A stretch of DNA of 54,234 bases, taken from the NCBI GenBank assembly GCA_001662655.1, contig KV460265.1, one strand, 5' to 3'. Within the stretch, counting starts at the first letter, position 1. Every line of letters starts with the position of its first letter. Shown piece by piece: positions 6,746 through 49,457 of this stretch. This DNA is from Pseudogymnoascus verrucosus (Eukaryota). Under the pieces are notes generated by a model. It saw only the letters and a program-made list of their open reading frames with translations. It was not told where the DNA came from and did not search any database. Both the position numbers and the translations under genes were made by a program.

Positions 6746-6910
6746 TTCTTCATCACAAACTGTGCAAAGAACTCCGTCAGGTCACATAGCACGCTCACCA
6801 GATTGGGCTTGCTTATTCCATTTCCTCAATATCAAAACAAAGCGTGAAAAGATCACCAAGAAGCAATTTCATCATCCAAACCGCAAAACAAAGGGGCACA
6901 CACAGCGACA

Positions 6911-9703
6911 ATGTCCGACTCACCTGGATCAGACTCATCATCTGGATCAGACACATCGTCTGAGGAATCCCCTGGAAATTATGAACTGCGCATGAATGAA
7001 TTAGGGATGGCTGAAGTGCTGTCTTTTTCATATGCACGATCTCCATCTCCACCTGCATTGGAAGATCCCAAGACTCCTGAAGCCACTTCTTCGACATCAT
7101 CACCCTCAGCAGTCGGGACCCCAGTTTCCACGTCGTCGGGAACTTTATCTGCAGAAGCTGGGAGCCCAACATCGACGTCGTCCAGAACTTTGTCTCTACA
7201 AGCTGGCACCCCAACATCAACGTCGTCGAAAACTTTGTCTCTACAAGCTGGCACCCCAACATCAACGTCGGAGGAGGATGACCCGTATCCAGTAGCTCAG
7301 AGCCCAACATCGACGTTCTCGGAATCCACGTCTGCTGCTGCACCCAAGACCCCAACCAAGTCCCCAGCAGCAAAGAACCCACCATGCACGTCCCTGTCGG
7401 CGCCGTATCCAGAGTCGTGGACTGAAAAACTGTGGTCTCCACCATCGTCTCCAGAGCTGCCCTCTCAATTGTCTCTGCATCTACCGTCTCCGGTGCGGAT
7501 CTCTCCGGAGCCATTCTCTCCAGCGCCGTGGTGGCCCGTATCGTCCTCTCCAACACCCGAGCCTGGAGCACGCACGACTCCAGCATCCCCACCGCCACCA
7601 CCGCCTGAGCGCGTCGTCATCGCCATCGCGGGCCCAACCTCTAGTGGCAAGACAACTCTCTCCAACCTTCTTCTCCATGTCTTTGGCAACGGCAGTGCTA
7701 CTCCGGGAAGCGGCTTTACCTCGGTCGCCCTCCATCAAGACGACTACTTTGTTCCTAGTAATCTCCCTACCGGACCTCAAGTTCAATGGGCTGAGTGCTA
7801 CCTTGAAGAATGGATGGGCGAGTGCCTTGCCAGTCGCGCCTGCATGTTCAAAGGTTTCACCGTGGAGGAAGCCGACAGGATCACACCCGTGCACGAGGAG
7901 ATACTCATCAGGGAGTATCGGGATGTCCATGCCCGTAGATGGAATGCACCTCATTTCGATGCAGAAGTTCTCAGCCTCCAGCTTCGCAGTGGCAAGAACC
8001 GTGACACGCGCCTTGTGACTGACTTTTTTGCTCTCGCCATCGCTATTGCGCGTGCCAAGGCGTCTATGCTCGACTCCGACATGGAAATTGCTGAGAGGGG
8101 TATGGTCACGGATTATAGCTTCCTTCTGGAGAAACCAAGCATTGACGGTCCCGAGATCGAAGACAACGAATATGGACCTCGCGATCCAAGCCCTTTCATC
8201 AAGGAGGAGGAGTCTATCAAGGGGGATGGATCAGTCAATGGAGTGGAACCTATCGAGATCTATGAATCAATCGAGAAAGATGAACATATTGAGGTATATG
8301 AATCAATCGAGAAAGACGAATCTATCGAGAAATATGAATCTACCAAGAACGGTGATCCTATCAAGGAAGAGGAGCCTATCCTAGAAGACGAGATCCTCGG
8401 GCATGATGAAGTATGGAACATCACAAAGTACAGGATCCACAAGCCTAGATGGCCCCCATACAAAGTTGACCATGGGATATATGGCCCCTACCTCCAAGAC
8501 CCCACCATGGTCGTCCCCAAGAAGGGTAAATCCGGCTACATCAAGAACCCGATCAAGCCCAACTCCCTCATTCCACACCACTGCTTCGCCGTCGAGCCAA
8601 ACTCCCTCCAATACCCAGAGCTCCCAGACGGCACCCGCAAGCTCCTCCCCGTCATCGTCAATCTCCGCCTCCAAGTGCAACGCTGGATCGAGGCTATGAC
8701 GACTCTGAACGAACTCGCTGGCTTCCCCGGGCTGAACTTCATAGATGGCAAATTCCGCGGCATCGTCTTCGTCGAGGGCTTCACGATCCTCCAGCCCGCC
8801 GAGGTCGACCCCGCCGCCCATCAACCCAACTACGACCTCTCGCTCTTCCTGTCTGCAACCCGTGAGGGAACGCGCAAGCGCAGATTTGCGCGCAAAGAGT
8901 ACAATAAACCGCTCATGAAGAGATACATGACATGGCGCGAGAAATCCTACTTCGATGGCGTTGCGTGGCCTGCGTTCGTTGAGGAGCACCAGTGGATCTT
9001 TAACATGACTCCCCAGCAGGCGAAAGAGGGACTTATGCCCGATGCCAAGTATGAGAATGTGTCTGACCTGGCGAAGGAGCGAGGCTTGGAGGTGCGACCG
9101 GGTGAGATGGGGATTAAAGAGACGCTGGAGTGGGCGATGCGTAAGATTATGAATGAGTTTGGGTTCAAGGAGAAGACTGCTAGGGAGAAGTGGGTGGAGG
9201 AGAAAAATGCTAGGGAGTACTTGGCGAAGGAGCAGAATGATTGGAATATGTGGGTGGATGAGGAGAATGCTTTCCATATGTGGGTGAATAAGGAGAATGT
9301 TAGGGAGATGTCGGCGGATGAGGATAATGATGGCGACGTCGTGGAGCAAGAGCAACCTGGAGAGTGGATTCAGGAGAACTTGATGGATGAGGACGACATT
9401 GACTTCATGTTTGAGATAGAGAAGCGTAATCTAGATATAACGGATGCGATTCATCGGGAGTGCCGTGATGATGGTCAGGTCCGTGATGATGCTGACCCTT
9501 ATTGGGGTAGACATGGTGCTGTTGAGGATGAGGATTTTGATTACGCTGCTGATCCCTGGTGGGGAATGCAGGATGACAATCTTGTGGAGGAGGTCTATTA
9601 TTCGGGAGACTTCAAAAATCTGGACTGGGAGGGGGATGATGGTATGCAGGCTTTCGGGACGTCGGATTCGGAATTATCGCAAGGAGGGTTTTGTAAGATA
9701 TGA
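6911..9703 (+). CDS. Enlarged P-loop kinase of the nicotinamide riboside kinase / uridine kinase family (930 aa)
   Basis: Intronless ORF. Walker A VIAIAGPTSSGKTT, LHQDDYF, later IVFVEGFTIL, YDLSLFL...RKRRFARKEY and YFDGVAWPAF match the fungal Nrk1-type motif order. It has a Ser/Thr/Pro-rich N-terminus, a large internal insertion and an acidic tail. Confidence 0.8.
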   Translation: MSDSPGSDSSSGSDTSSEESPGNYELRMNELGMAEVLSFSYARSPSPPALEDPKTPEATSSTSSPSAVGTPVSTSSGTLSAEAGSPTSTSSRTLSLQAGTPTSTSSKTLSLQAGTPTSTSEEDDPYPVAQSPTSTFSESTSAAAPKTPTKSPAAKNPPCTSLSAPYPESWTEKLWSPPSSPELPSQLSLHLPSPVRISPEPFSPAPWWPVSSSPTPEPGARTTPASPPPPPPERVVIAIAGPTSSGKTTLSNLLLHVFGNGSATPGSGFTSVALHQDDYFVPSNLPTGPQVQWAECYLEEWMGECLASRACMFKGFTVEEADRITPVHEEILIREYRDVHARRWNAPHFDAEVLSLQLRSGKNRDTRLVTDFFALAIAIARAKASMLDSDMEIAERGMVTDYSFLLEKPSIDGPEIEDNEYGPRDPSPFIKEEESIKGDGSVNGVEPIEIYESIEKDEHIEVYESIEKDESIEKYESTKNGDPIKEEEPILEDEILGHDEVWNITKYRIHKPRWPPYKVDHGIYGPYLQDPTMVVPKKGKSGYIKNPIKPNSLIPHHCFAVEPNSLQYPELPDGTRKLLPVIVNLRLQVQRWIEAMTTLNELAGFPGLNFIDGKFRGIVFVEGFTILQPAEVDPAAHQPNYDLSLFLSATREGTRKRRFARKEYNKPLMKRYMTWREKSYFDGVAWPAFVEEHQWIFNMTPQQAKEGLMPDAKYENVSDLAKERGLEVRPGEMGIKETLEWAMRKIMNEFGFKEKTAREKWVEEKNAREYLAKEQNDWNMWVDEENAFHMWVNKENVREMSADEDNDGDVVEQEQPGEWIQENLMDEDDIDFMFEIEKRNLDITDAIHRECRDDGQVRDDADPYWGRHGAVEDEDFDYAADPWWGMQDDNLVEEVYYSGDFKNLDWEGDDGMQAFGTSDSELSQGGFCKI
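7110..7330 (+). repeat. Intragenic 45-bp tandem repeat encoding AG(T/S)PTSTSS(R/K)TLSLQ
   Basis: About 3.5 copies of gctggcaccccaacatcaacgtcgtcgaaaactttgtctctacaa, plus a further partial copy at about 7300. Confidence 0.85.
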
Positions 9704-12069: not shown

Positions 12070-13065
12070 TCAAGTATCTTCCTGCCACGCAAAATCCAGG
12101 TCCTTATTCCTCTTCGTCCGATTCAGCGCCCTGAACCTCTCACCCTCCCACCCATTCCCGCGATCAACCCCATCCCACCTATGCCCAGGACGAATCCCAT
12201 ACCGATTCGGCGCCGCAGCTCCCTTATATGTCTTCTTCCCCGTCCCCGCTACAGCCGCACTCCCACCCCCACCCCCTCCAACATCCTCCTTCTGCGTCAA
12301 GAACGCCATCGCCGGATCATCCCACCTCAACTTCCCCTTCAACTCCCTATTCAACTCCTCATCCTCCACCCCCCTCGCCACCGGCATAAACCTCGCCTCC
12401 TCCAGCTCCTCCCTCCTCTTCTCCCTCACCTCCTTCTGCTTCTCCCCCCCCATCTCCTCCCTCTCCCTCCTCTCCTTCCTCACCCTCTCCTCCTCCTCCC
12501 TCCTCGCCTCCGCCCTCCTCATACTAATATCAATCCTCCGTCCCGTCGCATCACGATACACCGTCTCCTCCTCCTTCCCCCTCCCCCCCCCTTCCCGCTC
12601 CTCTTTCTCCCACCTCGCCCTCTCCCTCCTCGCCGCCCTCTCCATCTGCTCCGCCACCGCTGCGCCGCTCTGAAGACCCGCATGCGTCCCATCCCCCATC
12701 TTCACAATACTTGGATCCTCATCCCCTCTCCCCGCTTCCTCATTCTCCCGCGCCGCTTGCGCTACAATCGCGTCGGCCTGTGCATCATCTCCTCCGCCGG
12801 CGGTAGGCTCCCGCACGGATTTCCACGCGCTCTGTTTAGCTTTGCGAAATTCTGCAGTAGACCCAGATGTCACGGCTGTAATTGTATCCTCATCATCGTC
12901 CTTGCGGACGGGCGCCCAGTCCGCGTCGTCGTCGGCGATGATAAGGCCGGTGTTGGCGGATGTGTCTTTGGTCTTGCGCTTGCGTTTTTTGGTGGAGGAA
13001 GAAGAGGAGGAGGGGCCGGGGTCCGCGGTGAGGTATTTGGAGGCGAGGTAGGAGGAGAGTGACAT
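12070..13065 (-). CDS. CWC26: Pre-mRNA splicing factor Cwc26/Bud13 (RES complex)
   Basis: MSLSSYLASKYL start, ETVYRDATGRRID, RWDDPA and the C-terminal PNRYGIRPGHRWDGVDRGNGWE Bud13 signature. Confidence 0.95.
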   Translation of the reverse strand: MSLSSYLASKYLTADPGPSSSSSSTKKRKRKTKDTSANTGLIIADDDADWAPVRKDDDEDTITAVTSGSTAEFRKAKQSAWKSVREPTAGGGDDAQADAIVAQAARENEEAGRGDEDPSIVKMGDGTHAGLQSGAAVAEQMERAARRERARWEKEEREGGGRGKEEETVYRDATGRRIDISMRRAEARREEEERVRKERREREEMGGEKQKEVREKRREELEEARFMPVARGVEDEELNRELKGKLRWDDPAMAFLTQKEDVGGGGGGSAAVAGTGKKTYKGAAAPNRYGIRPGHRWDGVDRGNGWEGERFRALNRTKRNKDLDFAWQEDT

Positions 13066-13190
13066 GTTTGCGGGTGTGAGTTCGTGGGTTTTTGGAAATG
13101 GGTAAGGCCTCTGGTTGAGATGAGGCTGGTGGTTTGCCAGGTTTGGGCGAGGCTGCGTAGTAGGGATAAATGTCTTGGCATTTATGAATG

Positions 13191-13457: not shown

Positions 13458-15799
13458 CTACGTAGCTCTTGGTCTCAACAGCTTATCCTCCTGGCTGAAC
13501 ACCGAATTCTCCTTAACCAGCTTAATAAACTTCTCACGATCCTCTTTGTCCTTCCCATTCCCCTTGATACGGCCCGAGAAAATCTTAAGCAGCATCCCAA
13601 TGGCAATACCCTCCGCCGGGATCGCAGCCGCAATCTCATCCGCCATAATCGGTCGAATAGGAGACGCCGCACCTGCAGAGCTGTTAGTCACGCGTGCTGA
13701 AGCTGGAGAGCCGTCACGAGGCTTTGGGGGCGACGTGGGTCTGAAGGGTATCTGCGACGTAGGACTCAAAGAAAGAGGGGCCATACCCTGTGCCTGGGCC
13801 GGGCTCCCAGCGCGGCTTCCATTGGCGGGGCTGCCGGCGCGGGAAGGAGAGGCGCTGTTGCCGAGACGGAGCTTAATGCCGGATTTGCGCTTCTTGCCGC
13901 CGGCGCCATCCGACATCTCGCTGTCGCTCATGGCTGGGTGGGGGGTGTTGGCTTGGATGTCAGAGAGGCGTGAGGAGTTGACGTGAAGCTTGACGATGGA
14001 GGATTTGCGTGGGCTGACGCCACCTGCTGGGGCTGAGGAGGATGGGTGAGGTGACCCCGAGCGAGGGGTGGATGTCCCGGTTGGCTGGGAGGATGAAAGC
14101 ATGTGCTTCTTCTTGTGCTTCTTGCGGGTGGATTCGTTTCCGCTTGTTTCGGAGGCTGAGAGGTTGGGAGATCCAGCGCGCTTGAGGTGGTTGTGTTTCT
14201 TGTGAGGATCAGTGCTTCTTGGGCGTCCAATCGGGGTGGTTGTTCCCTTTGTTGAAGCGCCAGAGGCAAGCTTTGGCACGCCGAGCTTTTCTTTCTCTTT
14301 CAACTTGGCCTCCTCGTCCTTCTTGCGGTCTTCCTCGGCCTGCTTCTCGTCATCTGTGGTCTCATCGCCGCTCTGTAGTTTGTTAGTATATGACGTATGA
14401 AATGGAATTGGTGACATACTGAAGAAGAATATGGGTTTGAGGAATCGCTCTCATAAGTGTAGTTCTTTTCACGCTTTCTGAGCGACTTCCTCAGGCTCTT
14501 GCCAAGGCGCTTCTTCATCTCCTTTTCTTTCGCTTCCTCCTTGAATTCTTCCTCAACTTCTTCCTCATCTGCGTCTCCAAACAAATTCGCTCCCAACTGC
14601 TCCCGCTTGATCTTTTCAGCAGCGAACTTGGTGTCCTCGTCATTTTCTGGCTCGACAGTGGCCTGCTCGTCATCATCTTGGAACAAATCATCTGTAATAT
14701 CAAGATCGTCGTGATCTCTAGCTTCGCTCTTGGGCATGGGCCTCTCGCCCTTGACTTTACTGTACAGGCCAGCCATGGCTTGAATTCCCCTCTGCCTCTC
14801 TGCGGCTTCTTGGTTCTGTTGGTCAGCATGCATAACCCATCTATTTGCCTTAGACTTCTTGTTCATCTCAGCCTCTGCCTCCTCGATCGTCAAAGTCTTA
14901 AACTGGTTCTTAGGCGTGAACTTGTACCACTTCTCGATCGGAACCATCCTGAAATTGGTCCCGTCGATGACGAAGATGACGTTCGTGTCCGACAAAGCAG
15001 CCTCGTAGTTGCCCACCCAAGTTTGTTTGTTCTCGGCGTCTTCAAGATGCCATGGTAAGGCCTCTTCATAGCGTAGATCTGACTCCTTCATCTCCTCTTC
15101 GGTCTGGGCCGTTCTATGAACCTGGGTCGTCTTCTCATTCTTGAACGACTGGACTTTCTTGGCTGCCAATGCCGATGCGTTGTTTCCAGAGGGTGCAATC
15201 TGGGCCAGATCAGCAGCTCGCTGTGCCTCTTTGGCAGCCCGAGCGATTTCCTGCTTCTCTCTCTCCTTATCATCGATTGGCTCCCCCATCACCGTATCCT
15301 CATCCTTGGCGACTTTCCCAGCAGGCGGTTGTCTTGGGTCGCGGCGATGGAGAGAGACGGGCTTAATGAAGTCGTCAGAATTCGTTGGGTCGACCTTCTT
15401 CTTAGAGGCAAATCGTGCAATATGGTATCGTAGACCCTCGCGCATCGCCCTCTTCGTCGTCGTGAGCGCAAAGTCCTCGTATTCTCCGATGTTCGACTTG
15501 CGTGTGAAGTCGAGCTGGGGCTGTGGCGGCGCATTGCTGCTTGGTCCCGCAGGAGCAGCTGCTCGATTATTCCCTGGGTATCGTGGTAGGGGACGAGGTG
15601 GCGGTGGTGGTTTGTTCAGGGCAGTGAGTCCATTCTGGTTCTGTTGGCGTGATCTCGGAGCAGCCTGTGGCCGCACAACTGGTTTCTTGTAGGTGGCGAA
15701 TGGATCGGCCTTTGCTCTTCGGATGATCTTTGGCGGTTGCCCGCCTGAGTTTGGTGTCGGGGTTCCATTGGGAGTGATGCCAGCTGGAGAAGCGCTCAT
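13458..15799 (-). CDS. TFG1: Transcription initiation factor TFIIF alpha subunit (Tfg1/RAP74); introns 14419-14373 and probably 13786-13673
   Basis: Motifs LRYHIARF, PVSLHRRDPR, LRYEEALPWHLED, WVGNYEAALS, FRMVPIEKWYKFT and TLTIEEAE, plus a C-terminal winged-helix-like segment. Introns GTATGT...CTAAC...CAG and GTATGG...CTAAC...CAG. Confidence 0.93.
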
Positions 15800-16959
15800 G
15801 ATCACCAGTGACGTTCGTGTGGCCCCGAGGCAGCTATCCAGGGGTGGCGAGGATGCACAAGAGGCACTGATGCGCAGTTGCGAAGCTCAGTATGCGGCAG
15901 ACTAGTATTCAAGCAGTCCTCTAGATGTGGTACAGCGTTGTGTTGGAGCGCAGAGAAGTGATCGGAGTGTATCGCCCCACGCGCGCGACGTCAGAGCGAC
16001 GATTCGAAATCGAAAGAGGCGGTGCGCAAGGCTCAGTTTTCTGCGCTTTCAAAGATGATTGTTGGTAAATCCCTTTCTTTGTTGTGTCTAGTATAGAGGT
16101 GAGAGGGAGTGGCGGAAGGAAGAGTAAATGGGTGAACAATGGAGAGAGGGAGTGAATATGTCTTGGTGCCTTGCCTCACTCCTCTTCTTTGGACTTGGGA
16201 CGAACCCATGAACTTCGCGTGTACTAGGGTGGGCGCTAGCTCACGTTTTGGCTGTTTTTAGCGTGGGCGAGAGCTCCGCGAGACTCATGGCCTTCCCGTG
16301 ACTTTACACGTGACCTTGCAACATCTCTGAGCTGGTCCATCCAAGCATACATTTCCTTTTATATACTGTTCTGACACTTCTTAAAGCTCCATACGGCTAC
16401 ATATTAACTAAAGGAGCTTCGTTTATCACATAAATGATTCAGGCGCCTCTTGGGCGTTGATTCAAAATTCGACTCTGGTAACTCTTTGATGTATCCTCTG
16501 CTTATCAGAACCACAAGCGGCCGCTTACCTTCTTCCATAGCCCAACCTCTGCTCCACACATAAAGTGACGACCTATTCAACTCTACTACGCTCTCTACCT
16601 AGACCCTGTCACGGCTAGGAACTACCAGCCCAGTATACTTTGGTATATGGATAAGAAGAGATCCGGCTAACAGGATATCATTCTTTGGGGAATGGCAGCC
16701 GCAAAACGGAGCCTATCAATCGTATCATTCGTCAGAGGCTCGCTCACGTGAAGCTGTACCTTAAGAGGCTACGCCCTGGACACTTCATCCTAGAGCTATA
16801 CTCTCTCGGAAATACTCCGCGGTTGACATAGGCTTCGGGGAAGAGGATCCATTCCAGGTATCCTAACGACCGTTTTATTTCATTGGTTTTCCGGCATTGA
16901 GCTCTCGGCACTAAAATCATCAAGATACGGAAGGCTCCGTACGCCCAAGTGTCAAAGAG

Positions 16960-19900
16960 ATGTCTCAGAATCATCAACAACAGGAGCTTCCTGATGGCGC
17001 GAATCTTGAGGACAGGCTCCGCGGCTTAATTATGAACAACTCACCAGGTCCTGTTATTCAAGACCAAAGGCAGCCAGCCGCTCCAGCATCTGTTCCTACG
17101 ATTCCTCCTCATATGAGAGGTGCTTCGTTGGCTCAGCAGCAAGACTATTTGCAGAGAAGTATGATGCGTACTCAAGGCCCACCTGCACAGCCAGTGCAGC
17201 AAGCTCCGCCTCAGAAGGCCCCTCAAACTACTCACAAGCGCCTTAATCAATTTCAGCGCCGACAGCTCGCTTCGCAAATGGCTATTCCTGTAAATGATAA
17301 AGCCTCAGTGTCTACCGCCCCGCAAGGGAGCCCTGGATTCCATGGTACCCAACATCTTTCTCACCGTCTTGCTGGCAATCCGCAGAATAGTGTCATGTTC
17401 CAGCAGCAGTCAGAACAAATTACCTATCAGCAGGACTTTCAACGTGGCCCCATGCCTCAGTCAGTTGTGCACCGTGGCCCAGGGTTCCAAGATACCCACG
17501 TGAGAGGCCCGCCTCCTGGGCTTGGTGGTGAATTTAGAGGGCAAGCCCCTGGGTATCAGCAAGGCCATTCCCAACAGCAGTGGCAGCAAGGTCGTCAGAA
17601 TTTCCAGCAAGATCGCCAGAGCTTCCAACAAGGACCATCACAGTTTCAACAGCGCCCACCCCCGCAGAATCGTCAACTGTTCCAACCGGGAGGATATGGA
17701 GCACCTCTTCGTACTATAGCTCCCTATGGCGTCTCGCCAGAGCAGATCGCTGCCCAGAGTGATTTTCTTGAGAGCTTGGTCCAGGCAATCGTTCCTCATG
17801 TTGGAGTTAATACCGAGGAGATTGCGGAAAAAGAGGCCTTCAGAGCAAAAGCCGAGCAAGTATGTCGGGATGCAGTTGTCAAGTACGAGCGAGAGGAGCT
17901 AGGGAATCAGGACTTTGTGCCTGAGTCAGTGCAGTTGACGTGCTTTGGGAGTATGGCGTCTGGGTATGCAACTAAGGGATCGGATATGGATTTGGCATTG
18001 CTCAGTCCGTTGTCTTTGATACCTCCGGAGTCCTCTGAATCCCCGATCCCGAGAATACTTGAGAAAGCATTGCTTGAGTGGGGGTGTGGTGCGAGGCTGT
18101 TAACGAGAACACGAGTTCCGATTATCAAGTTGTGTGAGAAGCCAACTGAGAAACTAAGGGCCGACTTACTTCAAGAACGATTGAAGTGGGAGAATGGGTT
18201 TGATGTGGATGAACCTGATGAGGATGTCGTTGAGGAGGACTTAGATGCTGTCGAGAAAGACGAGGTACCGGAGAACGCCGAGAAGCCCACAGTTGCTGTA
18301 ATCGAAAAAGCGAAGACTGCTGAAGAGATATACACCGAGACACTGTCCACTTTCCGTCAAAAGAAGAACCTCTCCCTTGGCGATTACTATGGCTCTGCGA
18401 AACGACTTTTGCGGCAGTTAGGAGGACGGGATGTCGGGGCAGCGTATGGAACGAACCCAACTGAAGATGAGGTTAGAATCCTCGCAGATGTTTGCGAAGC
18501 CTTTGTCAACGGTCTCGAGAACCAGGAACTCAGGGATCAGCTTGTCCAATACAAGTCCCTAGTCTTCGACCGAGTCGGAAACCCTGCAATGGCAAAATCT
18601 CTTGGTGGAGTCTATCAACAGATCGAAGGAGAGCGCCTAGCCATGGCATGGAGCTCTAGACCTTTGCCAGAGATGACTGAGCGGTCGGAAGGGTTTTCGG
18701 ATGATCTGATCAAGCAATGGAGGACGCTATTAGACTGCAATACAGCAGAGTCTGCAGTGTACAATAGACGGCTTCACCAATCACTGGAAAGGTTGAAGAA
18801 GGTAGCTTCGTTGCAACTCGTATTCCTTGAGCATCAGGAAAATGAGAGCGCAGCGCAGTACTATGCGAGAGTTCGCAAGCTCTTGCTCGAACTTGGTGGC
18901 AAGGATGAGCCTGGTGCCGAGAATACTGCTCTGGCTATTGTGATCACACACTACATCAACGGCGCGAGGGGCATCAAAATCCGCGAAACCCTACAGTCCA
19001 TAGTTTCTCGGAACCCGCCTCTTTCTCTCAGCACAATCGGCCTCCATCACCGAATCCTCGAATTAGCGCGCGACTTTGAGAAAGCATTAGCTAAAAATAC
19101 CTACCAAGAAGCAGACCGCCCATATGTTGAGATGTACATCTCTGTCCTGCTATCAGCCAGCACTGGCACAGAAACCTCGGCACCGCTCCTACCATCTACA
19201 CCACACCTCCTCCCCCTCCTCGAGAAAATCGCCACCCTCCCCGACCCAACGCACGCCTGCAAGCCCCGGGACCGCTACCATGACCACCTCGAGTTCCCCA
19301 AAACGAAAATCGGTATCCAGTGCGATATCAATTTTGCCGCCTCGCTCGCCCTCCACAACACAACCCTCCTGCGCTGCTACTCCCTCACCGATCCGCGCAT
19401 CAAGCCGATGATCCTCTTCGTTAAGCACTGGGCCAAACGCCGCGCCATCAACACGCCCTACCGCGGCACCCTCTCCAGCTACGGCTACGTCCTAATGGTG
19501 CTCCACTACCTCGTCAATATCGCCCAGCCCCCCCTTGCACCAAACCTCCAACACCACAACCCTCCTCCACACGCTCCCGCCATCGCACCACAAACCTGCC
19601 AAGGCGCCAACGTCACTTTTTGGCGCGATGAGCGCGAACTGACCGACCTTGCACGCCGCGGGCTGCTGAACCATAATGGCGAAAGTGTCGGGTCGTTGCT
19701 GAGGGGATTCTTCGAGTACTACGCGCAGAACGGGCCGATGAGCGGTGGTGGTGGACGCGGATTCGATTGGGGACGCGAAGTACTCAGTTTGCGGACTCGA
19801 GGCGGCTTGCTCACGAAGCAGGAGAAGGGGTGGGTAGGCGCTAGAACCGTGACGCAAACTACTACCGAGGCTGCGCCGGCGGCAACAACAGCGGTAGCTA

Positions 19901-20244
19901 ACGGAACCGGTGCGCCGGGGTCGCCTGGTGCAGCGCGGAAGGTGGTGCGCAAGGAGGAGGTGAAGGAGATTCGGCACCGGTACCTGTTTGCGCTTGAGGA
20001 TCCGTTTGAGCTTGATCATAATGTGGCGCGCACGGTGACGCATAATGGGATTGTGGCGATTCGGGATGAGTTCCGGAGGGCGCTGAGGGTGGTGAGGGGT
20101 GTGGGGAGGGGAGGGGGAAAGGATGAGGGGGGGTTGCTGGATGAGGTTAGAGCGGAGGAGGGAGGGAAGGAGGGAGTGGTGGAGGGGATGAAGGTTATTC
20201 ATGGGCTTGGGGCGGAGTTTGGGGGTGCTACGGCTGAGGCTTGA
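16960..20244 (+). CDS. Cid1/Cid13-family non-canonical poly(A)/poly(U) RNA nucleotidyltransferase (TUTase-like) with a large insertion
   Basis: NTase motif CFGSMASGYATKGSDMDLAL, RVPIIKL, CDINF...LALHNT.LL..Y, VKHWAKRR.IN.PYRGTLSSYGY.LMVLHYL and PAP-associated LLRGFFEYY...FDW...EDPFELDHNVAR. Q-rich N-terminus. Confidence 0.93.
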   Translation: MSQNHQQQELPDGANLEDRLRGLIMNNSPGPVIQDQRQPAAPASVPTIPPHMRGASLAQQQDYLQRSMMRTQGPPAQPVQQAPPQKAPQTTHKRLNQFQRRQLASQMAIPVNDKASVSTAPQGSPGFHGTQHLSHRLAGNPQNSVMFQQQSEQITYQQDFQRGPMPQSVVHRGPGFQDTHVRGPPPGLGGEFRGQAPGYQQGHSQQQWQQGRQNFQQDRQSFQQGPSQFQQRPPPQNRQLFQPGGYGAPLRTIAPYGVSPEQIAAQSDFLESLVQAIVPHVGVNTEEIAEKEAFRAKAEQVCRDAVVKYEREELGNQDFVPESVQLTCFGSMASGYATKGSDMDLALLSPLSLIPPESSESPIPRILEKALLEWGCGARLLTRTRVPIIKLCEKPTEKLRADLLQERLKWENGFDVDEPDEDVVEEDLDAVEKDEVPENAEKPTVAVIEKAKTAEEIYTETLSTFRQKKNLSLGDYYGSAKRLLRQLGGRDVGAAYGTNPTEDEVRILADVCEAFVNGLENQELRDQLVQYKSLVFDRVGNPAMAKSLGGVYQQIEGERLAMAWSSRPLPEMTERSEGFSDDLIKQWRTLLDCNTAESAVYNRRLHQSLERLKKVASLQLVFLEHQENESAAQYYARVRKLLLELGGKDEPGAENTALAIVITHYINGARGIKIRETLQSIVSRNPPLSLSTIGLHHRILELARDFEKALAKNTYQEADRPYVEMYISVLLSASTGTETSAPLLPSTPHLLPLLEKIATLPDPTHACKPRDRYHDHLEFPKTKIGIQCDINFAASLALHNTTLLRCYSLTDPRIKPMILFVKHWAKRRAINTPYRGTLSSYGYVLMVLHYLVNIAQPPLAPNLQHHNPPPHAPAIAPQTCQGANVTFWRDERELTDLARRGLLNHNGESVGSLLRGFFEYYAQNGPMSGGGGRGFDWGREVLSLRTRGGLLTKQEKGWVGARTVTQTTTEAAPAATTAVANGTGAPGSPGAARKVVRKEEVKEIRHRYLFALEDPFELDHNVARTVTHNGIVAIRDEFRRALRVVRGVGRGGGKDEGGLLDEVRAEEGGKEGVVEGMKVIHGLGAEFGGATAEA

Positions 20245-20619: not shown

Positions 20620-23600
20620 TGTAAACAATAGGCGGGAGATTTCTACGTGTACCTCTATAGTTACTACTTCCATTGTAGTTTGTAAAAAGACAGAGTGTAG
20701 CATTAGAGATTGTAGTTGCTGTTATTATAATCTTCATGCTAGACGGTCTTGATTCTGTTAGGCTAAACAGATGGCGAAACTCAAACTTTTCTTATAGTGC
20801 TTCTTCTAAGAGCATAGCATCGTATAGGCTATTAGCAAAATATGATATAAGGTACTACTAACATTTCGTAATCGTAGAACGCAAAACGATCCTTTTGAAA
20901 ACACACATTATAAACTTATGCTAGAAACGGAGACATGTCTTTATGTTCTAGTGCATTATAAAAAGGCTAGCTAGGCTAATAGCTCCTGTTATGTGTTAGT
21001 TATTATAGGATGTTATTTTAAGCTACTAGGTAACAAACCTAAACTTGTCCCTATTCCTAAATCAAAGTGGTCCTATATAGGATAATTAAGTCTAAAGGCA
21101 TCTTGCATTTCATTAAAGAACGTTAGTAAAACTATTCTATAACATCCACCTCTATTAAAGCTAACAACTTATGCATAACATATAGGAGGCATGACTCTTC
21201 CTTAAAAACAAACGCTTTACTAGTAGATAAGGTAGGTATTCTAGGCAAAAGTATAACGTATTTCACGTACGAGTTGGCCGCACGGACGAGTTGGCCACCA
21301 AAACACCAAAACGCGTCAACTTGACAAATGTCAACATGCCACAACCAACACAAGCCCAATCCCCTAATCAAGAGGGTAGAATACTATTAGCTATTCAGGC
21401 ACTAAAGGAACATCAATTTAAGAGCGTCTAAGCTGCTGCATTGTCGTATGACGTGCCACGTAGCACCCTTACTAACAGAATGAATGGAATGACCACCCGA
21501 CGCGACTCCCCCCCTAACTTATAGAAGTTGACTTCGTACGAAGAGTCAGCTCTCGTCTAGTACATCCTTAACCTAGATTCACGTGGATTTCCACCCCGAC
21601 TGCAAGCTATGCAAGAAATAGCAAACCTTCTACTCTCTAAACAAGGCGAGAGCCCTATTAGGATAAACTAGACTACTACCTTCATTAAGCGTCGTACGGA
21701 ACTTAAAGCAAAGTTTAGTTAGAAGTATAATTATAAACGAGCAAAATGCAAAGATCTAAAGATAATTAAAGGGTAGTTCTCCCTTGTACAAAACATAGTT
21801 ACAAAATACGGAATCTTAGAGCAGGATATCTACAACTTTAATGAAGCAGGTTTCATAATGGGAGTTATTACTACTATAAAGGTAGTTATAAGCTTAGAAG
21901 TAAAGAGCTGTCTAAAGACTATATAGCTAGGGAATAGAGAGTAGGTGTTAATTATCTAAGGTATTAATTCGTATAGATAGGCACTCCTGCTATTCATTAT
22001 TTTTAAGGCGTAGAATCACCTCTCTACTTAGTATAAGGACTTAGGATTGCTAAACGACTAGGTAATTACACTAAGTAAGAATAGGTAGACTTTAAATTTA
22101 ATTAGGTATAAGTAGATTTAACACTTTAATTAGCATATAAATGCTTATATAGTTAGAACCTATTACCTTCTTATTCTTAACAGACATAAGAGCTACCTCT
22201 CTACTTAATTTTAGTACTACTACATAGAACAGAAGATAATTACACTCTATATGCTACTACACTCATTATACATTATTTAGCCTCTTAATGTAAGCTGCTT
22301 TACGCTACTAAAGCTTTTATATAGAAAGTAGATTAAAACCTTTATATAGAACTAGCTAAACTACATTATAAAGCTTAAGTTCCTCTCTACATTTAAAGTA
22401 GCATTTAAAGCTACATTTATAGAGTAGAACATTAAGAGCAGATTCTAAGCTATAGGGCTAGTTCCGTACGAGCTATAGAATGTCCTCTCTTACTTAAATC
22501 TACACTTAAGGACTCTAACCCCTCCTATAGTTAAGAGTGGCAATTAGACTTTAAAGACTCCTTAAACTATAAGGGAGCTTAACTTTTAAACAGAGCACAT
22601 TAAGAACTACATCGTACGGCATTAGAACAGCTCTTCTACCTTAATTAATGATTCTATTAGCTACCTTGTTAAAGGGGTAGAAATGATAATGCATTCTGCT
22701 ATTCTACTTAAGGTAGAAGTTAAGGCTCTATAGACTACAAATGAACAGAAAAAGAGGAGGGAAAGGAAGCGCAAGAGGCGTATAATGTAAGGGGGCAGTC
22801 TCTCTATACGAGAGGGAGAGGATATCCTTTAGAGTGCTAAGGTTGATGCTCAACTCCGTACGGAGGTGGCAAGTAAGACTACTTAGCAGGTGGGTTCTAT
22901 AGGCCGATAGCGGCGATGTGGCACATGTGGTAATATAGGGCATAATGCTCGTACGTGCGAGAGGCGCTAGGAATCAATTATAATTAAATAAGGGTTGTTA
23001 TATAGGGTAGTGGTGTAGTAGTATGTAGTAATAGTTAATTTTAGTGTTTTAGTGGCCAACTCGTCCGTGCGGCCAACTCGTACGTGAAATACGTTACTAA
23101 CGAAGCCTATTAAAAATAGCATAATCTTATATCTAAGGGTTCCTATTATGTCTAGATTTAATCTGTTCATTTTATTAGCTTATAAAGTAAATTCTAGAGC
23201 TATATAGCTTATATAACTATCTATAAGGAGAACCTTTGTTAGTGTTTTTAGAGTAGCATTTGTATGTTGCTGCTCTCTAAAATGTTGATATATTTATCTT
23301 AAGAAATTGCTATTATTATAATATCCTAGCTATTAATATTAACTACACTAAATTTCATCCTTATAATAAGTACAATAGATAATGATTTAAGGTGAAAAAA
23401 CTTACAGACAGGACTAAGTTGATTCGCCCTAGTTAACGCCGAATTTTTACCTAACTGTTAAAAAGCTGGTAGGTAACATACGGCTGTTGTAAGAGAAGGA
23501 AGATTATTAATTATAGATTACGGACAAGTCGAGCCCTAGGCTAGGTATAGGGATAGTTACGAAGGTACTAGTTGAACTAGATATAGTTATTACTATGTAA

Positions 23601-25143: not shown

Positions 25144-25427
25144 AGTGAAGTTTTTGAATAATTGACGTATGAGGACGGTGTATGCCAGATGAGTTCCTGT
25201 TTATTTGGACTAGTATACTGAGTAAAGGGGTGCAGGAGAAGTGGATTACAAACGTGGCTCAGTCTCAAGAGTTGCCTCTGTACGCACAGGAAATTCAATC
25301 CGACCAACGTACTTTATACGCGAGGGTGCCACCCGAGCGAGCGCTATATGAGGCTGTAATGAAGCTAGTGTATAGGCCGAATTTTGTGGCAAGGGAGTTA
25401 AATAATTCGCTAACATACATCCTACAC

Positions 25428-25818
25428 GTGGTTGCTGCCACACAACCAGGGTCATATCCCGCATTATCGTGTTCGAGGAGGGTCAAGACTTATCGATTTG
25501 GAATTAGTAAAACTTTTCGCGTTCTTAACTTGCCTTTACTTTGGTTCGTGGCTTAGACTTTAAGCGCTAGTGGGAAACTGTGATGGGAGTTGCCACTTAG
25601 TGATGACATAATTGACCAGGTGCGCTATGACTATAATGTAGCTAATGTATAACATCCTTGCAGGTGGTTGCCGCCAGGCAACCAGGGTCATATCCTGCAT
25701 TATCGTGTTCGAGGAGGTCGAGACTTATTGATTTGGAATTAGTAAAACTTTTCGCGTTCTTAACTTGCCTTTACTTTGGTTCGTGGCGTAGACTTTAAGC
25801 GCTAGTGGAAACTGTGAT
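25428..25818. repeat. Near-identical direct duplication of about 155 bp (25428-25584 and 25664-25818) in the divergent promoter
   Basis: gtggttgc...ccagggtcatatcc...gatttggaattagtaaaacttttcgcgttcttaacttgcctttactttggttcgtggc...aaactgtgat occurs twice, 236 bp apart. Confidence 0.95.
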
Positions 25819-40871: not shown

Positions 40872-42509
40872 TCATCCTGAACCATCCACACCACGCGCCC
40901 AGGCCACAGACTTCGCTTGGGGTTGGTTTGTCACAGTGGTCGCAGTCGCAGCCGTGATTTTAGCAACTGGCGGGTTTGTCACCGTTGTCTCAGTCGCAGT
41001 CGTAGTTGTAGCACCTGCAACTGGTGGATCTGGCACTGTGGCTGCAGTCCCAGTCGCGGCAGCAGCAGCTGTCCCCCCTTGCGCCCCTTGACCTTCACCT
41101 TCCCTCGGAGAAAGTCCCGTCTTCCACCTCCTCACCCTCTCAAACATCCTCATATCACTCCTCACCAACTGTCTCCTCACATTCGGCACATACATGACCC
41201 TCCTCGCCAAGACCTCCTTCTCCATCTCCGCCAGCGTAAACTCCTCATAGAACTCCTCTCTCTCCAACTGGAATTCCTCCGGCTCCAGCTGCGACGTCAG
41301 AAGGATGCTCAGGGCGTCAACTTGCATCACCGTTGGTACGCGGATGAAGATCCCCGGCGCGGGGTTCAATGCCGCTAGCAGGCCGGGTTGCACCGAGTAG
41401 ACGGGAGCGGGGGCTGTGGGGAGGAACCCCTGTTTTCGGTCGTCGTCGAGGAGGATATCGATGCAGTCTAATTTCGTGCCGGAATTCTGTTCGATGCCGC
41501 GGGTGTATCCGCGGGCTCGCACGATGTCTTGAAGCTGGGTAAGGGACATCTCGTTGTATATCGCGGCGGCTTCTTCCATGCGTGCCGTGCGGTAGAGGGG
41601 CTCATACGAGAGCTCGATTGGCATCTGGGTTTGGTCTCGGTACCGCTCGTAGACGGGGTTTAGCGGCGTCGTCGTGGTAATGGGGAGGCCGTTGTCTGCG
41701 ATTAGATTGTGCGTTGGAACGGGGTATAACACTGTGATGTCTGCATGGCGTGGATGCTGGTGAGGGCTTGGCCAGGAGCTGATGTTTCGCGTGGATGCCC
41801 GGTTAGTTTGCATGGTTGCTGGCGTTGGGATTAACTTGGTAGACGGCATCAGGGGCGCATATGGGCCTTGAGGGATGTAAACATGTTTGATTTTTTGCAT
41901 CCCAGAGGCTTTGCCTTCCACTTCCATGACGTTGCGGGTAAGTTGCGAAGTGGGCCTTCTCTTGGACCTGGGGATTCCGAATACTTTGCAACGGCGCTTG
42001 AGATATCTTCTGCTTTTCTCTTTATAATACTTGTATTGTCTGTCCATAGGCTGGTCTCCAGGAAGGTTTGTTGGCTCAGATGTAGACCTTATTTGCCCAA
42101 CTATGTATACACTGTTGCCTGCTTCGTCTTCCGCGTTCAATATAGCTTTTATGATGTCGTCTCTGCTTGATCTCCAGCCCATAATGACATTCAGGTCTCT
42201 GCATCGTTTTATGAGGTCGTTCTTCATAAACAGCCCATATCGCTCCGCTCTCACACTGCGGGTGTTGGATGTTGACACTGGTTCCAGGCTTTCATATCCC
42301 GTGACAAACTGTGTCACAGTTATGAATCCAGCTCTGTTCATTGTGCGATCGTAGTTCTTGAGTTTATCTTGCACGTCTATAATGGTCCGAATGATATCGT
42401 CTTTCCAAGCCTTCCATATGATGTCGATGTTTAACTCCTCACACATTTTCAGGAGGACTTTCTTCTCCTGGTGCTTATATTCCACCCATCTATCCTCTAC
42501 AGTCGACAT
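40872..42509 (-). CDS. Hypothetical protein (545 aa) with up to five SAP/HeH-like helical repeats
   Basis: Intact intronless ORF with a recurring Y-x(5-7)-L-x3-(C/V)-x3-(N/G)...(K/R)xD(I/C)I-x2-I pattern. Confidence 0.75.
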   Translation of the reverse strand: MSTVEDRWVEYKHQEKKVLLKMCEELNIDIIWKAWKDDIIRTIIDVQDKLKNYDRTMNRAGFITVTQFVTGYESLEPVSTSNTRSVRAERYGLFMKNDLIKRCRDLNVIMGWRSSRDDIIKAILNAEDEAGNSVYIVGQIRSTSEPTNLPGDQPMDRQYKYYKEKSRRYLKRRCKVFGIPRSKRRPTSQLTRNVMEVEGKASGMQKIKHVYIPQGPYAPLMPSTKLIPTPATMQTNRASTRNISSWPSPHQHPRHADITVLYPVPTHNLIADNGLPITTTTPLNPVYERYRDQTQMPIELSYEPLYRTARMEEAAAIYNEMSLTQLQDIVRARGYTRGIEQNSGTKLDCIDILLDDDRKQGFLPTAPAPVYSVQPGLLAALNPAPGIFIRVPTVMQVDALSILLTSQLEPEEFQLEREEFYEEFTLAEMEKEVLARRVMYVPNVRRQLVRSDMRMFERVRRWKTGLSPREGEGQGAQGGTAAAAATGTAATVPDPPVAGATTTTATETTVTNPPVAKITAATATTVTNQPQAKSVAWARGVDGSG

Positions 42510-43297
42510 GATTGCCTGTGTCGTTTCGGAGGATATTGAGCGCTAAGGCACGATATGACAGGAATAAAAGAATGTGAGAAAGACGCCGTGATGTTCGATG
42601 CCAGATTGGCGAAGCAAGAGTCCTACTTCAAGACGCAACGTGTAGAGTAGGAAACTGAAGGTATAACTTTCAAACTCGAAGCGAAACTAAAATATTAGAA
42701 AGACCTTTGGGTTTTGGGGATGAGAAATAGCCCATGTTTGGTTTCTTTGCCTAGCTAGAAAATAGACAAAGGACAAAGGACGGACTGTCCGGCTCGAGTT
42801 GAAAGCAACCCCACCCGCAATAAAATCAACACAAAGAAAGACCGAAAGCGGCCACTACTATACCTGAAGGATGTCGAAGCCGTCTCATACTTATAATAGT
42901 GTGGTTTGGACTCAAAGCCGAAGTTGCGAGAGCTGAAAACGACAAGACAGAACTCCCCGGCTGCCTTGGAGCGGGTGATGGGACCTAAAGACTGTAGTAT
43001 CAAGCCAATAAAGAACCTGTAAGAATGGTATGGCACTTCGAAGCCTTCAGATCAAAGACTGTTGAGCCTTTTTAGAGAAGTTAAGCGTCCCATCCTGTTG
43101 GTGATATATCACGAAGCTCTTGTCACCATACCATCGTGAGATATCGTGTTATTTGTTATAAAAATTAGGCCTATCGCTAAGAATAAAAACGTACAAAGTC
43201 TACTTATTCCATCATTAAAAATAATAACTCGAGACGAGTTGGCGTTGTGTTGTATGAAGGTAGAAATAATTGGTTTGGTGAAATCGATATGTCAACA

Positions 43298-46498: not shown

Positions 46499-47390
46499 GG
46501 CAACTACTATGGGAGCGAACTGGGAATGGGGCGTTTTTGGCTGTTCGGCTAGAGAGGTATGCGTCAGAATACGCACGACGAGGTGGGGGGAATGGAGGGA
46601 ATACAGCTGATATGACGGACGATTTGACGATGGCGCTTCCATATGATACGCCGCGCTTTACGAAGATCGGGAGAGAGCGAATGCTATTTTTTCAAGAGTT
46701 AATTTTACATCTCGCACACACTCACTAGTCATATATTTCCAACACTGCGGATTTACTTGGATGGGGAAGGAGCGACTGGCATGGTACTACACAACGGGCA
46801 AGCGCAGCATCTATCACGCTTACACAACGCGGCGGCTTTTACAATGACTCTTACTATGCACTACGGGGGTGGGCGCGTGGGAGGGTGGTTGTCTCCAGGG
46901 TTTTAAGGTTTGACATTCAGGACTAGACGCAGCGGCGGCGCCATGTTATACGTCAGAGACAAGAAACTTCCCACCACTTTTGCCTGCCCTGGTACCTTTC
47001 CCCTTGCTGTTCCTTGGGGGGTGGGACCTTTTACCATGGTTAGTGGGCCCAGCCGCTCGTGGTGTTAGTCGATTTGACTGTCAAAGTCCCGTGGTGGGTG
47101 GCATGGCAGTCCATTTGAACATGAAGCATGTATATTAGGCGTTCCAAGCTCTCATTCTCTTTTGGATCATTTTCCTTTTTTTATTGTATCATAGAACACT
47201 ACGTGGGCAACACAGCGCGATATCTGTACCTTATAAAATACATACAACTTTTAACGACACCTCCTTGATTCACAATCTTGCAACCGTTTCTATTACCTCC
47301 CGACTTGCTTATTGCACACCTCGTCACCTCGTGTGAAGCTGTCCGCCATTTCTCTAAACTTCAGTTCATAAGAACATTTTTTCGGCTACA

Positions 47391-49457
47391 ATGGCTCCTG
47401 TGGGACAGGATGAAGGCGGTATTTTCTCTAAATTTGTCGAAACACTGAGGGGTGTTATTCGCAACATACCGCCTAGTCCGTCATCGTTGCCCTCTGGGCA
47501 GCAGCCCATGGCCTGGCCATCTGATACAACAGGAGAGGAATCTTCATCTCCTTCAGCCGATCCCGAGCGTATCTCCATCAGAGCCTTGTGGCCTCATGAG
47601 CCAGACTTGCCACTTGGCTCATCATCGACTTCTCAGTATGGACTACCCCATGCACTGGGACATACTCAAGTTGAGCATATGTATATCCCTAGTGGGGTAG
47701 AGAGGATTCAGCAAGATGCACTTGACGCTTTGAACAGCCTAAGTGTAGTCCATACCACAGATTATGAGACTTTGGCTGGTCTATCCTCCACCGCAGGTCA
47801 ACAGGTTTTGCCTTCGAAATTTTTCTTCGAGCATTATTTGTCTATCGCCAAATTTCGCGAGAACAACGAAGGCGCAATCACCTTCGACGACGACGACGAC
47901 GAAGAGTTTTTTTTCTGTCTGGGCCCGCCGAATGGCCGCCGCCACTACTCCCCGCCCCCTATCCTCGACACCTCATCGGAATCCCTGCCAGGGGACATGG
48001 ACCAGCCATTTTACGACTGGGATGAAGTGTTTGATTCCAATACGCCGGTGTCCAAAGAGTTAGATCCTGCCGCTCCAGTTTTTGAGTATCAACCCAGCCA
48101 CGCCTATATCCAAGATACGGCTCCAGGAGCATACGAGCAAGCTCTCCAGCCCCAGCACCCAATTTCCGAGCTCCTGGAACCCGAGTTTCCAGCAAAGACT
48201 GTAATCGCCCCGGATCCAGGAGTAGGTCAGCAACCTCTTCAGTCCCAGGATTCAGTCTCCGAGCCCCCAGAGCCCGAGCTTCCAACACAGGCTCTAAGCG
48301 CCCCGGCTCCCCAGCGTCATGCGCCGCAACAATATCGTGCACCACCGCTGCGTCACCTACCATTCCACCCTGATAATATAAGAAAGCGGAAGGAGGCGGA
48401 ACTCAGGGCCCAGCGCCAGCGTCAGGGAAATGGCGATAGTAATGGTTCTGCGAACGGTAATGGAAATGCTCGATCGCAGAAGTCACAAAATGGCAATGCG
48501 TCCTCTGGGCCGTCACAGGGGCCGTACAGGCCAACCGGATCCAATGGGTTTTTGGCAACTGCTACGCCGTCACGAGGCTCGTCGGGGTCAAGCCATTCTA
48601 TGGCACACGGCTCCCATAACGGGTCATCTGGATTTCAAAGAGCTCGCAACGGCTCCTTTAATCCTCTAGCTGCTTCGCCGTCGCCATCGTCTTCGGCGCT
48701 TAAACTCCGGAGCAACCCGCCTAGTCCTACTCGTTCTGGTCCATCCAAGCGCCCCAAGGCCGGCAGCAACTCACCTAAGACCACAGCTACCACAGACGCC
48801 GGCCTGTCAACCACGCCTACACTATCCTCTAGTCCGCCTCATAAGTTCAAGAAAACCGCCGGTTCATCAAATCTTCTAGAACGACCACCTACCCCTGGGC
48901 CGTCTGGAGAACCGAGGACAAAGCCTGCAACGAAAGGCAAGGCAAAGACGCATACCAAAGCAGCCAGTCCACCACGCTCACCTCCCGCACCGACCACTGG
49001 CACGACCGGAGTTCCTGCGGCGACTACCAGGCCGAATGGGGGCCATGCGAGAGGCCGGACGCGGCGCCAATCACCACCGGCCCAAGTCGCGGGGGTTTCG
49101 ACATCTACTGGCCAAAATTCGGCAGCTGCACCTCGGTCACCAACACAGATGCCGACTCAGACGAGAGCCAGCAACGGGACTGCGGGTGCTGGACCCTCGA
49201 CCGCAGGAAGTGGTGTTCCGGTCGAGCCTGCAAGAATCAATGGTCAAGAGTCGGTGGTGACAACTCGGCCACCCATGCCGCGGCCGACTCAGACGAGCAC
49301 CGGCGACGGAGTTGCGGATGCGGGACCTTCGGCTGGGGAAAGCAGTCCACAAGTTCGGCGCACAGGAAGGGAAGTGGCTAATGCGTTATTTGAGCAGCAG
49401 GTGGAGAAGCATAGGAGACTTCGGTCGATGGGTGGATACAAGAAGCTAGGGGGTTAA
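47391..49457 (+). CDS. Hypothetical, largely disordered Ser/Pro/Thr/Gly-rich protein (688 aa)
   Basis: 2-kb intact ORF with a good ATG context (ctacaATGg). Small internal repeats of about 31 aa and about 21 aa. No recognisable domain. Confidence 0.7.
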   Translation: MAPVGQDEGGIFSKFVETLRGVIRNIPPSPSSLPSGQQPMAWPSDTTGEESSSPSADPERISIRALWPHEPDLPLGSSSTSQYGLPHALGHTQVEHMYIPSGVERIQQDALDALNSLSVVHTTDYETLAGLSSTAGQQVLPSKFFFEHYLSIAKFRENNEGAITFDDDDDEEFFFCLGPPNGRRHYSPPPILDTSSESLPGDMDQPFYDWDEVFDSNTPVSKELDPAAPVFEYQPSHAYIQDTAPGAYEQALQPQHPISELLEPEFPAKTVIAPDPGVGQQPLQSQDSVSEPPEPELPTQALSAPAPQRHAPQQYRAPPLRHLPFHPDNIRKRKEAELRAQRQRQGNGDSNGSANGNGNARSQKSQNGNASSGPSQGPYRPTGSNGFLATATPSRGSSGSSHSMAHGSHNGSSGFQRARNGSFNPLAASPSPSSSALKLRSNPPSPTRSGPSKRPKAGSNSPKTTATTDAGLSTTPTLSSSPPHKFKKTAGSSNLLERPPTPGPSGEPRTKPATKGKAKTHTKAASPPRSPPAPTTGTTGVPAATTRPNGGHARGRTRRQSPPAQVAGVSTSTGQNSAAAPRSPTQMPTQTRASNGTAGAGPSTAGSGVPVEPARINGQESVVTTRPPMPRPTQTSTGDGVADAGPSAGESSPQVRRTGREVANALFEQQVEKHRRLRSMGGYKKLGG

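Follow-up and report, generated by a model that had tools for sequence, protein, structure and literature searches.

Tandem repeats of probable Gag capsid origin lie within the catalytic palm of a predicted fungal Cid1-type uridylyltransferase

Introduction

Why does a predicted terminal uridylyltransferase of a fungus carry some 400 amino acids (aa) in the middle of its catalytic palm, and where did they come from? The question is raised by a gene on the plus strand of contig KV460265.1 of Pseudogymnoascus verrucosus (assembly GCA_001662655.1), of which a stretch of 54,234 nucleotides (nt), hereafter the window, was analysed. The gene occupies positions 16960-20244 of the window. In this study, the insert was characterized by sequence comparison, structure prediction and phylogenetic mapping. 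It is well supported that the insert is a domesticated capsid C-terminal domain (CA-CTD) of Gag, an unusual one in that it is duplicated within the catalytic domain of an enzyme across seven fungal classes.

Animals offer well-known examples of domesticated gag genes. In fungi, Wang and Han described three gag co-options derived from Ty1/copia or Bel-Pao elements, one of them fused to PEX14, in Pleosporales/Mytilinidiales and in Tremellales/Trichosporonales (PMC8321522); in the available part of the main text, supplements aside, the present insert is not among them. A screen for fusions of fungal host genes with transposons mentions neither the PAP_assoc family PF03828 nor the Retrotrans_gag family PF03732 in the text portion available or in three supplements (PMC10799480), and this silence is weak evidence because PF03732 itself is absent there. 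CutA and CutB of filamentous fungi are likewise non-canonical RNA nucleotidyltransferases of Pezizomycotina, and two papers on CutA (PMC5689010; PMC7498324) do not mention a capsid or such an insert in the portions available. No published description of the insert was found, most subscription papers being outside our reach.

Materials and methods

The gene was taken from the list of open reading frames of the window and its translation. Published work is cited by identifier, and statements about it refer to the parts of each text that were available to us. Motif counts were made on 266 of about 310 homologues, namely those longer than 600 aa in which the boundary and recognition motifs were present. 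The organism name was known for 13 of the 30 cluster representatives looked up.

Predicted models were compared with 48,161 structure chains. Repeat 1 was folded alone, and repeat 2 was modelled within the two-repeat model only. The ratio of nonsynonymous to synonymous substitution (dN/dS) was obtained from one sequence pair, the window gene and a 96% identical locus, which was the one match among metagenome contigs.

Results

The insert splits the catalytic palm

The gene is a single open frame without introns and encodes 1094 aa. Matches to the palm family PF22600 (E-value (E) 5e-15, in two stretches) and to PAP_assoc (E 6e-12) were both above the Pfam cut-off. Cid1 of Schizosaccharomyces pombe was the best solved relative (E 1e-51); CutA was far weaker (E 4e-18) and is thus more distant. 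The catalytic triad and the nucleotide-recognition His align with those of Cid1. Residues G330, S331, D342, D344, D789 and H1020 were invariant in 48 of 48 diverse homologues, and the His was found in all 235 proteins that bore the recognition motif among 238 examined. On these sequence grounds, the protein is predicted to be an active Cid1-type terminal uridylyltransferase.

Between the motifs RVPIIKL (from aa 385) and CDINF (from aa 788) lie 396 aa, where Cid1 has about 8 residues. The alignment to Cid1 accordingly jumps from residue 110 to residue 119 across about 390 query residues. Both boundary motifs were present in 227 of the 238 proteins, spaced by 354-460 aa, and the insert measured 353-459 aa in 265 of 266 homologues. 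The insert splits the catalytic palm of the enzyme. One paralogous nucleotidyltransferase of the same genome (L010:1453-1770) has the short canonical spacing and no insert. The insert matched one genome locus only, so the gene is taken to be single copy; faint extra copies are possible, as a profile scan of the whole genome was not included. The closest named proteins (96% identity) are from Pseudogymnoascus, a genus of Leotiomycetes according to NCBI.

An intron or frameshift artefact was ruled out by the open frame, the conserved protein and the low dN/dS. Four read sets guessed to be RNA were also inspected: in three, a contig of a relative spans the insert without a joint, and in the fourth the match was in three short pieces. 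These sets were not counted.

Two homologous repeats make up most of the insert

The two repeats were aligned by BLASTP with 20 identities in 67 positions (E 6e-8, for a single comparison of a pair picked after the fact). HHalign scored the pair at 95.1% (E 3.4e-8) and then at 96.4%; profiles built from 47 diverse sequences reached 98.7% (E 4e-16, 127 columns), and three control pairings inside the insert scored 0.3-2.6%. Each repeat is about 155 aa long and consists of a five-helix core like that of a CA-CTD followed by added helices. Compared alone, the added helices of the two repeats gave no significant alignment (2.6% and 3.5%), and their homology is therefore judged from position. When 23 first and 22 second repeats were placed in one tree, each kind formed a group of its own with a support of 100, and the duplication is therefore older than the lineages sampled. 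Covariation (effective depth about 205) was strongest for pairs within a repeat; the few pairs between repeats fell mostly on the added helices and were too noisy to inform on packing.

The initial annotation, made from the window sequence alone, had described an insertion of about 390 aa holding two similar units. The gap and the similarity and position of the units were borne out; the extent assigned to the units was not, as each repeat proved to be considerably longer.

The predicted fold is that of a capsid C-terminal domain

The AlphaFold2 model of aa 452-735, built with 117 sequences, had a predicted local distance difference test score (pLDDT) of 95.7 and a predicted template modelling score (pTM) of 0.90, which suggests that both repeats form one rigid body. 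The top 13 structural matches of this two-repeat model were all capsids or capsid-derived proteins, and the first other fold appeared at Z 6.8. The best match was the CA-CTD of murine leukaemia virus (MLV), which was placed on repeat 2 (Z 8.9, root mean square deviation (rmsd) 3.1 Å, 84 of 87 residues). It was followed by Rous sarcoma virus (RSV), PNMA2, Copia, MOAP1, Arc, PEG10, the endogenous retrovirus HERV-K of humans, and Drt2. For repeat 1 alone (pLDDT 90.3), the top 28 rows were all capsids, led by the C-terminal domain (CTD) of MOAP1 (Z 8.3, rmsd 3.4 Å, 94 aligned residues), with Copia (8.0), PEG10 (7.8), PNMA2 (7.8) and MLV (7.3) among them, and the first non-capsid stood at Z 5.0.

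In two-lobed capsid chains, repeat 1 was aligned to the C-terminal lobe. Capsids of this kind spanned both repeats at an rmsd of 8-14 Å only; the repeats therefore do not appear to be arranged like an N-terminal domain (NTD) plus a CTD. The NTD of Ty3 matched repeat 2 at Z 6.4, the two capsid lobes being similar folds. A CTD-CTD identity is favoured by the alignment of repeat 1 with the C-terminal lobe and by the paralogy of the two repeats.

With the CA-CTDs of MOAP1, PEG10, PNMA2 and Arc (Ty3/gypsy-derived), Copia, Ty1, MLV, RSV and human immunodeficiency virus (HIV), the repeats share the predicted five-helix topology across most of its length (Z 5-9, rmsd mostly 2.4-4 Å), and repeat 2 shares the major homology region. 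The insert differs from these capsids in apparently having two CTD-like copies instead of an NTD plus a CTD, a long loop after the motif helix and added helices, and in lacking a zinc knuckle.

The major homology region and Retrotrans_gag point to Gag

The published consensus of the major homology region is Q(G/K)X2EX4/5(Y/F)X2(R/G)(F/L)X3H (PMC4734008). Of 266 homologues, 244 carry the strict pattern Q-x3-E-x4-[YF]-x2-R in repeat 2, 9 carry it in repeat 1, and 1 has it at another place in the protein. Its residues in repeat 2 were kept in 96-100% of the homologues (Q in 255, E in 260, Y in 265 and R in 257), and consensus positions 2 and 15 depart; the window protein has His in place of the motif Gln. 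In repeat 1, Q (261 of 266) and Y (260 of 266) are retained, the Glu position is mostly Gln, and the Arg is mostly lost.

PF03732 was the only family other than nucleotidyltransferases that matched more than 1 of 48 diverse members. At E≤1, it recurred in no fewer than 8 of 49 homologues; other scans matched it in 5 of 13 (best 3e-8) and, at E≤0.1, in 11 of the 48 diverse members. In a further scan of 11 orthologues, two from Monosporascus scored above its cut-off of 24.1 bits (30.8 and 28.7 bits), and automatic annotation already tags two orthologues with this family. Where shown, the matches fall on the CTD half of the model. PF03732 is, we assume, the Ty3/gypsy gag family, and no copia or Bel-Pao gag family turned up in the Pfam scans of homologues; a Ty3/gypsy donor is therefore weakly indicated. 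An RGS-like Pfam match (E 0.001-0.04) was rejected, as it occurred in 1 of 48 diverse members.

No Gag was among the 80 clusters matched in 1.84 billion proteins. Of these clusters, 77 carry nucleotidyltransferase motifs and the other 3 are short fragments. The CCHC zinc knuckle pattern was absent from all 80 cluster representatives and from the window protein. A search for stand-alone relatives of 138-459 aa returned one partial orthologue only, and viral contigs gave no match. In the ESM Atlas, all scores were below 0.9; the fourth-ranked cluster (0.82) has PF03732 on 12% of its members and serves as a lead only.

The insert is widespread in leotiomyceta and under purifying selection

The insert was present in seven classes of leotiomyceta, a group several hundred million years old: Leotiomycetes, Sordariomycetes and five further classes, these five by NCBI placement of those holders that were checked, some being unplaced within leotiomyceta. 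Further named holders were Xylona, Geoglossum, Pycnora, Sclerophora, Peltula, Vezdaea, Thelocarpon, Piccolia, Trizodia and Sarcosagium. Eurotiomycetes, Lecanoromycetes and Dothideomycetes gave no confident named match, with no direct absence test made in those classes. One protein carries the label Lasiodiplodia mahajangana and ranks with proteins of Xylaria; its assembly is possibly mislabelled.

A quick tree of the catalytic core recovered Sordariomycetes (support 98), these together with Leotiomycetes (98), and the remaining taxa (86). Many of its forks stayed open, and its groups follow host lineage. By region, dN/dS was 0.06 (repeat 1, 110 codons), 0.03 (repeat 2, 87 codons), 0.03 (palm), 0.15 (N-terminus) and 0.31 (linker). 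The repeats are under purifying selection, at a dN/dS near that of the palm. Co-option is recognized in PMC8321522 by a host-like phylogeny in at least two families together with purifying selection, and both were found here (seven classes; one sequence pair).

Layout of the gene and its surroundings

The domain layout of the gene is given in Table 1.

Table 1. Layout of the uridylyltransferase gene, in window coordinates
Feature	Position	Strand	Residues (aa)	Remarks
Cid1-type terminal uridylyltransferase gene (predicted)	16960..20244	+	1-1094	One frame, single copy
Gln/Pro-rich N-terminal region	16960..17754	+	1-265	Poorly conserved (mean identity 25%), probably disordered, judging by composition
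Catalytic palm, first half	17812..18135	+	285-392	GS motif G330-S331, D342, D344, strand RVPIIKL
Whole insert	18133..19320	+	392-787	396 aa, versus a loop of about 8 residues in Cid1
Conserved segment exiting palm	18136..18201	+	393-414	Mean identity 47%
Acidic variable linker	18202..18324	+	415-455	13% identity, dN/dS 0.31
Repeat 1, core of predicted CA-CTD fold	18325..18654	+	456-565	Degenerate major homology region 18358-18396 (Q467, Y476)
Two added helices after repeat 1	18655..18798	+	566-613	
Repeat 2, core of predicted CA-CTD fold	18799..19092	+	614-711	Major homology region 18832-18870 (H625 for Gln, E629, Y634, R637)
Added helical segment after repeat 2	19093..19254	+	712-765	Modelled to aa 735 only
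Conserved return segment into palm	19255..19308	+	766-783	49% identity
Third catalytic aspartate and fingers/central domain	19309..19854	+	784-965	D789
Nucleotide-recognition motif	19957..20097	+		H1020 aligned to Cid1 His of same motif

Two neighbours lie on the minus strand: Bud13 (12070-13188) and, in divergent orientation to the uridylyltransferase gene, a gene for the TFIIF alpha subunit (14303-15886). About 1 kb downstream of the gene, an AT-rich element at 21254-23096 is bounded by terminal inverted repeats of 58 nt that are 97% complementary and 1727 nt apart. It contains a broken frame from near 21336 and looks like a decayed DNA transposon, which we presume may be of the pogo/Fot1 type. 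At 25425-25811 lies a direct repeat in two copies, 91-96% identical, whose period is about 235 nt. Three long frames had no significant Pfam match, measured stop to stop: 6848-9703 (951 aa), 40872-42542 (556 aa) and 47358-49457 (699 aa).

Discussion

The inserted repeats are very probably CA-CTDs derived from gag in a long terminal repeat (LTR) retroelement, most likely of the Ty3/gypsy group, which entered early in leotiomyceta, were duplicated in tandem and have been inherited vertically. Because no single score is strong, the capsid homology rests on the agreement of fold, motif and Pfam matches. A Gag capsid origin had been suggested in the initial annotation, together with a capsid motif in both units and a distribution worth mapping. 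The origin gained support, as the predicted fold resembles CA-CTDs and the two units align with each other, and the distribution follows host lineages. The motif held for repeat 2 and is degenerate in repeat 1. Of the structural comparison it called for, the confident model and the lead of capsids in the structural ranking were obtained, and Foldseek returned no significant match.

Several observations weigh against this reading or parts of it. Three Foldseek searches gave no match at E≤0.001 (best 0.064, 0.071 and 0.040); among the weaker matches, one search listed retroviral capsids only and the CTD of PEG10 led the repeat 1 search (E 0.04), in which the proteasome activator Bpa ranked fourth. 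The structural tool warns that Z 8-9 is a range where a common helical arrangement may suffice. PF03732 on the window protein itself was below the cut-off (E 0.009, 16.7 bits), and a third Monosporascus orthologue did not match it. The insert profile found no capsid among Protein Data Bank (PDB) sequences, its best match being kinesin light chain repeats (E 0.009). Profiles of the units gave no signal (best 3.1 bits) on the six retrotransposon gag remnants of the same genome, five of which have internal stops. The Pycnora praestabilis orthologue has a 277-aa insert with one repeat only (type 1) and is nested in the trees; this form is probably a loss or a gene-model error. With regard to function, a tethering screen reports that the recognition-motif His is no sure guide to uridine specificity (10.1101/422972), and the palm insert of human TUT1 was dispensable in vitro (PMC5467268).

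These doubts bear most directly on the possibility that the insert is not gag-derived and that a host helical repeat converged on a bundle like the CA-CTD, for which the middling Z scores, the Foldseek and PDB profile results and the identity of 6-19% to solved capsids could be cited. Three findings speak against it: all 28 leading structural rows of repeat 1 are capsids and stand apart from the first other fold; in most homologues, repeat 2 has the motif with exact spacing where the structures correspond; and some Pfam matches exceed the cut-off. We regard convergence as very improbable. The tetratricopeptide repeats (TPR) of kinesin light chain were rejected, as no helical-repeat family led either fold search. 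Equally improbable is a tolerated passenger, a gag-derived insert kept merely because it must fold inside an essential domain. Such a passenger would be in keeping with the dispensable TUT1 insert, with the one lineage that has a single repeat, and with the three classes without a confident named match, which would imply losses; its insert length would not be expected to be so constant, nor both repeats to persist across seven classes at a dN/dS near that of the palm, and an idle insert should be easily deleted to a Cid1-like loop.

As for the origin and history of the repeats, we propose that one gag CA-CTD was inserted into the palm loop of a Cid1 orthologue early in leotiomyceta, and that this domain and its following helices would have been duplicated in tandem before the fungal classes split and then inherited vertically within the single-copy host enzyme. 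The catalytic core would still attach uridines to the 3' ends of RNA. As one presumably rigid helical body, the two repeats would hang off the palm via the flexible acidic linker and would not assemble capsids. Given a capsid origin, it is rather likely that this body serves for docking and thereby selects partners among host proteins, or substrates made of RNA and protein; the whole explanation, from gag insertion to host docking, we hold with modest confidence. As regards partners and substrates, docking is the most likely role and is predicted by analogy with the middle domain of the trypanosome uridylyltransferases RET1 and RET2, which sits at a similar position. In RET1, an RNA recognition motif (RRM)-like domain inside the catalytic domain is reported to contribute to RNA binding (PMC5159558). 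The middle domain of RET1/RET2 and the proline-rich insert of TUT1 also lie between the second and third catalytic aspartates (PMC5159558; PMC5467268); the former is RRM-like in RET1, the latter is predicted to be disordered, and neither is described as derived from a mobile element in the parts of those papers available.

Other gag-derived parts of host proteins offer different roles. SCAN, Crtg14-PEX14 of fungi and Crtg10-KELP of plants are also parts of gag fused to host genes; they are retained above the level of the family and are subject to purifying selection (PMC8321522); the present insert differs from them in lying inside a catalytic domain and in being tandemly duplicated. By the example of SCAN in zinc-finger proteins, the repeats could make the enzyme dimerise by way of the CA-CTD dimer face. 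A title cited in a survey of mammalian capsid genes (PMC10516033) describes SCAN as a dimer derived from a CA-CTD, the CA-CTDs of Ty1 p18 are obligate dimers (PMC13709905), and repeat 2 has a conserved, hydrophobic region at its first helix. However, the outer positions of the two helices of repeat 1 that match the Ty1 Dimer-1 face, mapped by helix order and not by coordinates, are variable and often polar, and the added helices may cover the conserved stretch of repeat 2. Such an oligomerisation module appears improbable.

The repeats might instead guide a defence, binding the Gag of LTR retrotransposons, or another particle, so that the enzyme uridylates the 3' ends of packaged RNA and blocks replication or triggers decay. 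Uridylation by TUT4/7 restricts the long interspersed element LINE-1 (PMC6191937), p18 and Drt2, which are isolated CA-CTDs, bind Gag and poison the assembly of Ty1 (PMC13709905), the major homology residues of repeat 2 are highly conserved, and gag remnants are present in the genome. Like the insert, Ty1 p18/p22 and Drt2 are CA-CTDs without an NTD that are encoded or kept by a fungal host, and Drt2 is a structural match (Z 6.9 and 6.3). In contrast to the insert, which is ancient, joined to an enzyme and distant from every Gag found, they are recent, stand-alone and near-identical to the target Gag: the action of p18 and Drt2 is confined to their own subfamily, and Drt2 shares 91.5% identity with its target (PMC13709905). 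No Gag close to the repeats was found in searches of limited reach among stand-alone proteins, genomic gag remnants, protein clusters and viral contigs, and the dN/dS of the repeats in one pair gives no sign of an arms race. The motif residues make an internal network of hydrogen bonds in the CA-CTD of HIV (PMC4734008), and their conservation may for that reason merely hold the fold. Since the known CA-CTD restriction factors need near-identity to the target, retroelement targeting becomes less likely, and capsid-guided defence is in our estimate unlikely, if the least so of these alternatives. Its broader form, in which the tandem CA-CTDs recognise a conserved surface on the assembling Gag of many LTR retrotransposons and deliver the uridylyltransferase to their RNA, is slightly less plausible again. 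Oligomerisation of the enzyme and targeting to retroelement particles were the two roles offered in the initial annotation; both are weakened by these results, and the capsid origin on which they were built is supported.

Even on a plain reading, an unannotated domain of 400 aa is present in an orthologue group of many filamentous fungi. The case is broader in range than the three deep fungal cases in the available text of PMC8321522, and it lies, duplicated, within the catalytic domain of an enzyme of RNA fate. It shows that screens based on Pfam miss internal capsid domains that are very diverged, and it raises the question whether a capsid-derived module decides which RNAs get uridylated. 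If it is true that the target RNAs are those of retroelements, this would be a new kind of genome defence, and capsid-mimic restriction and 3' uridylation would be joined in one host protein older than the split of several fungal classes.

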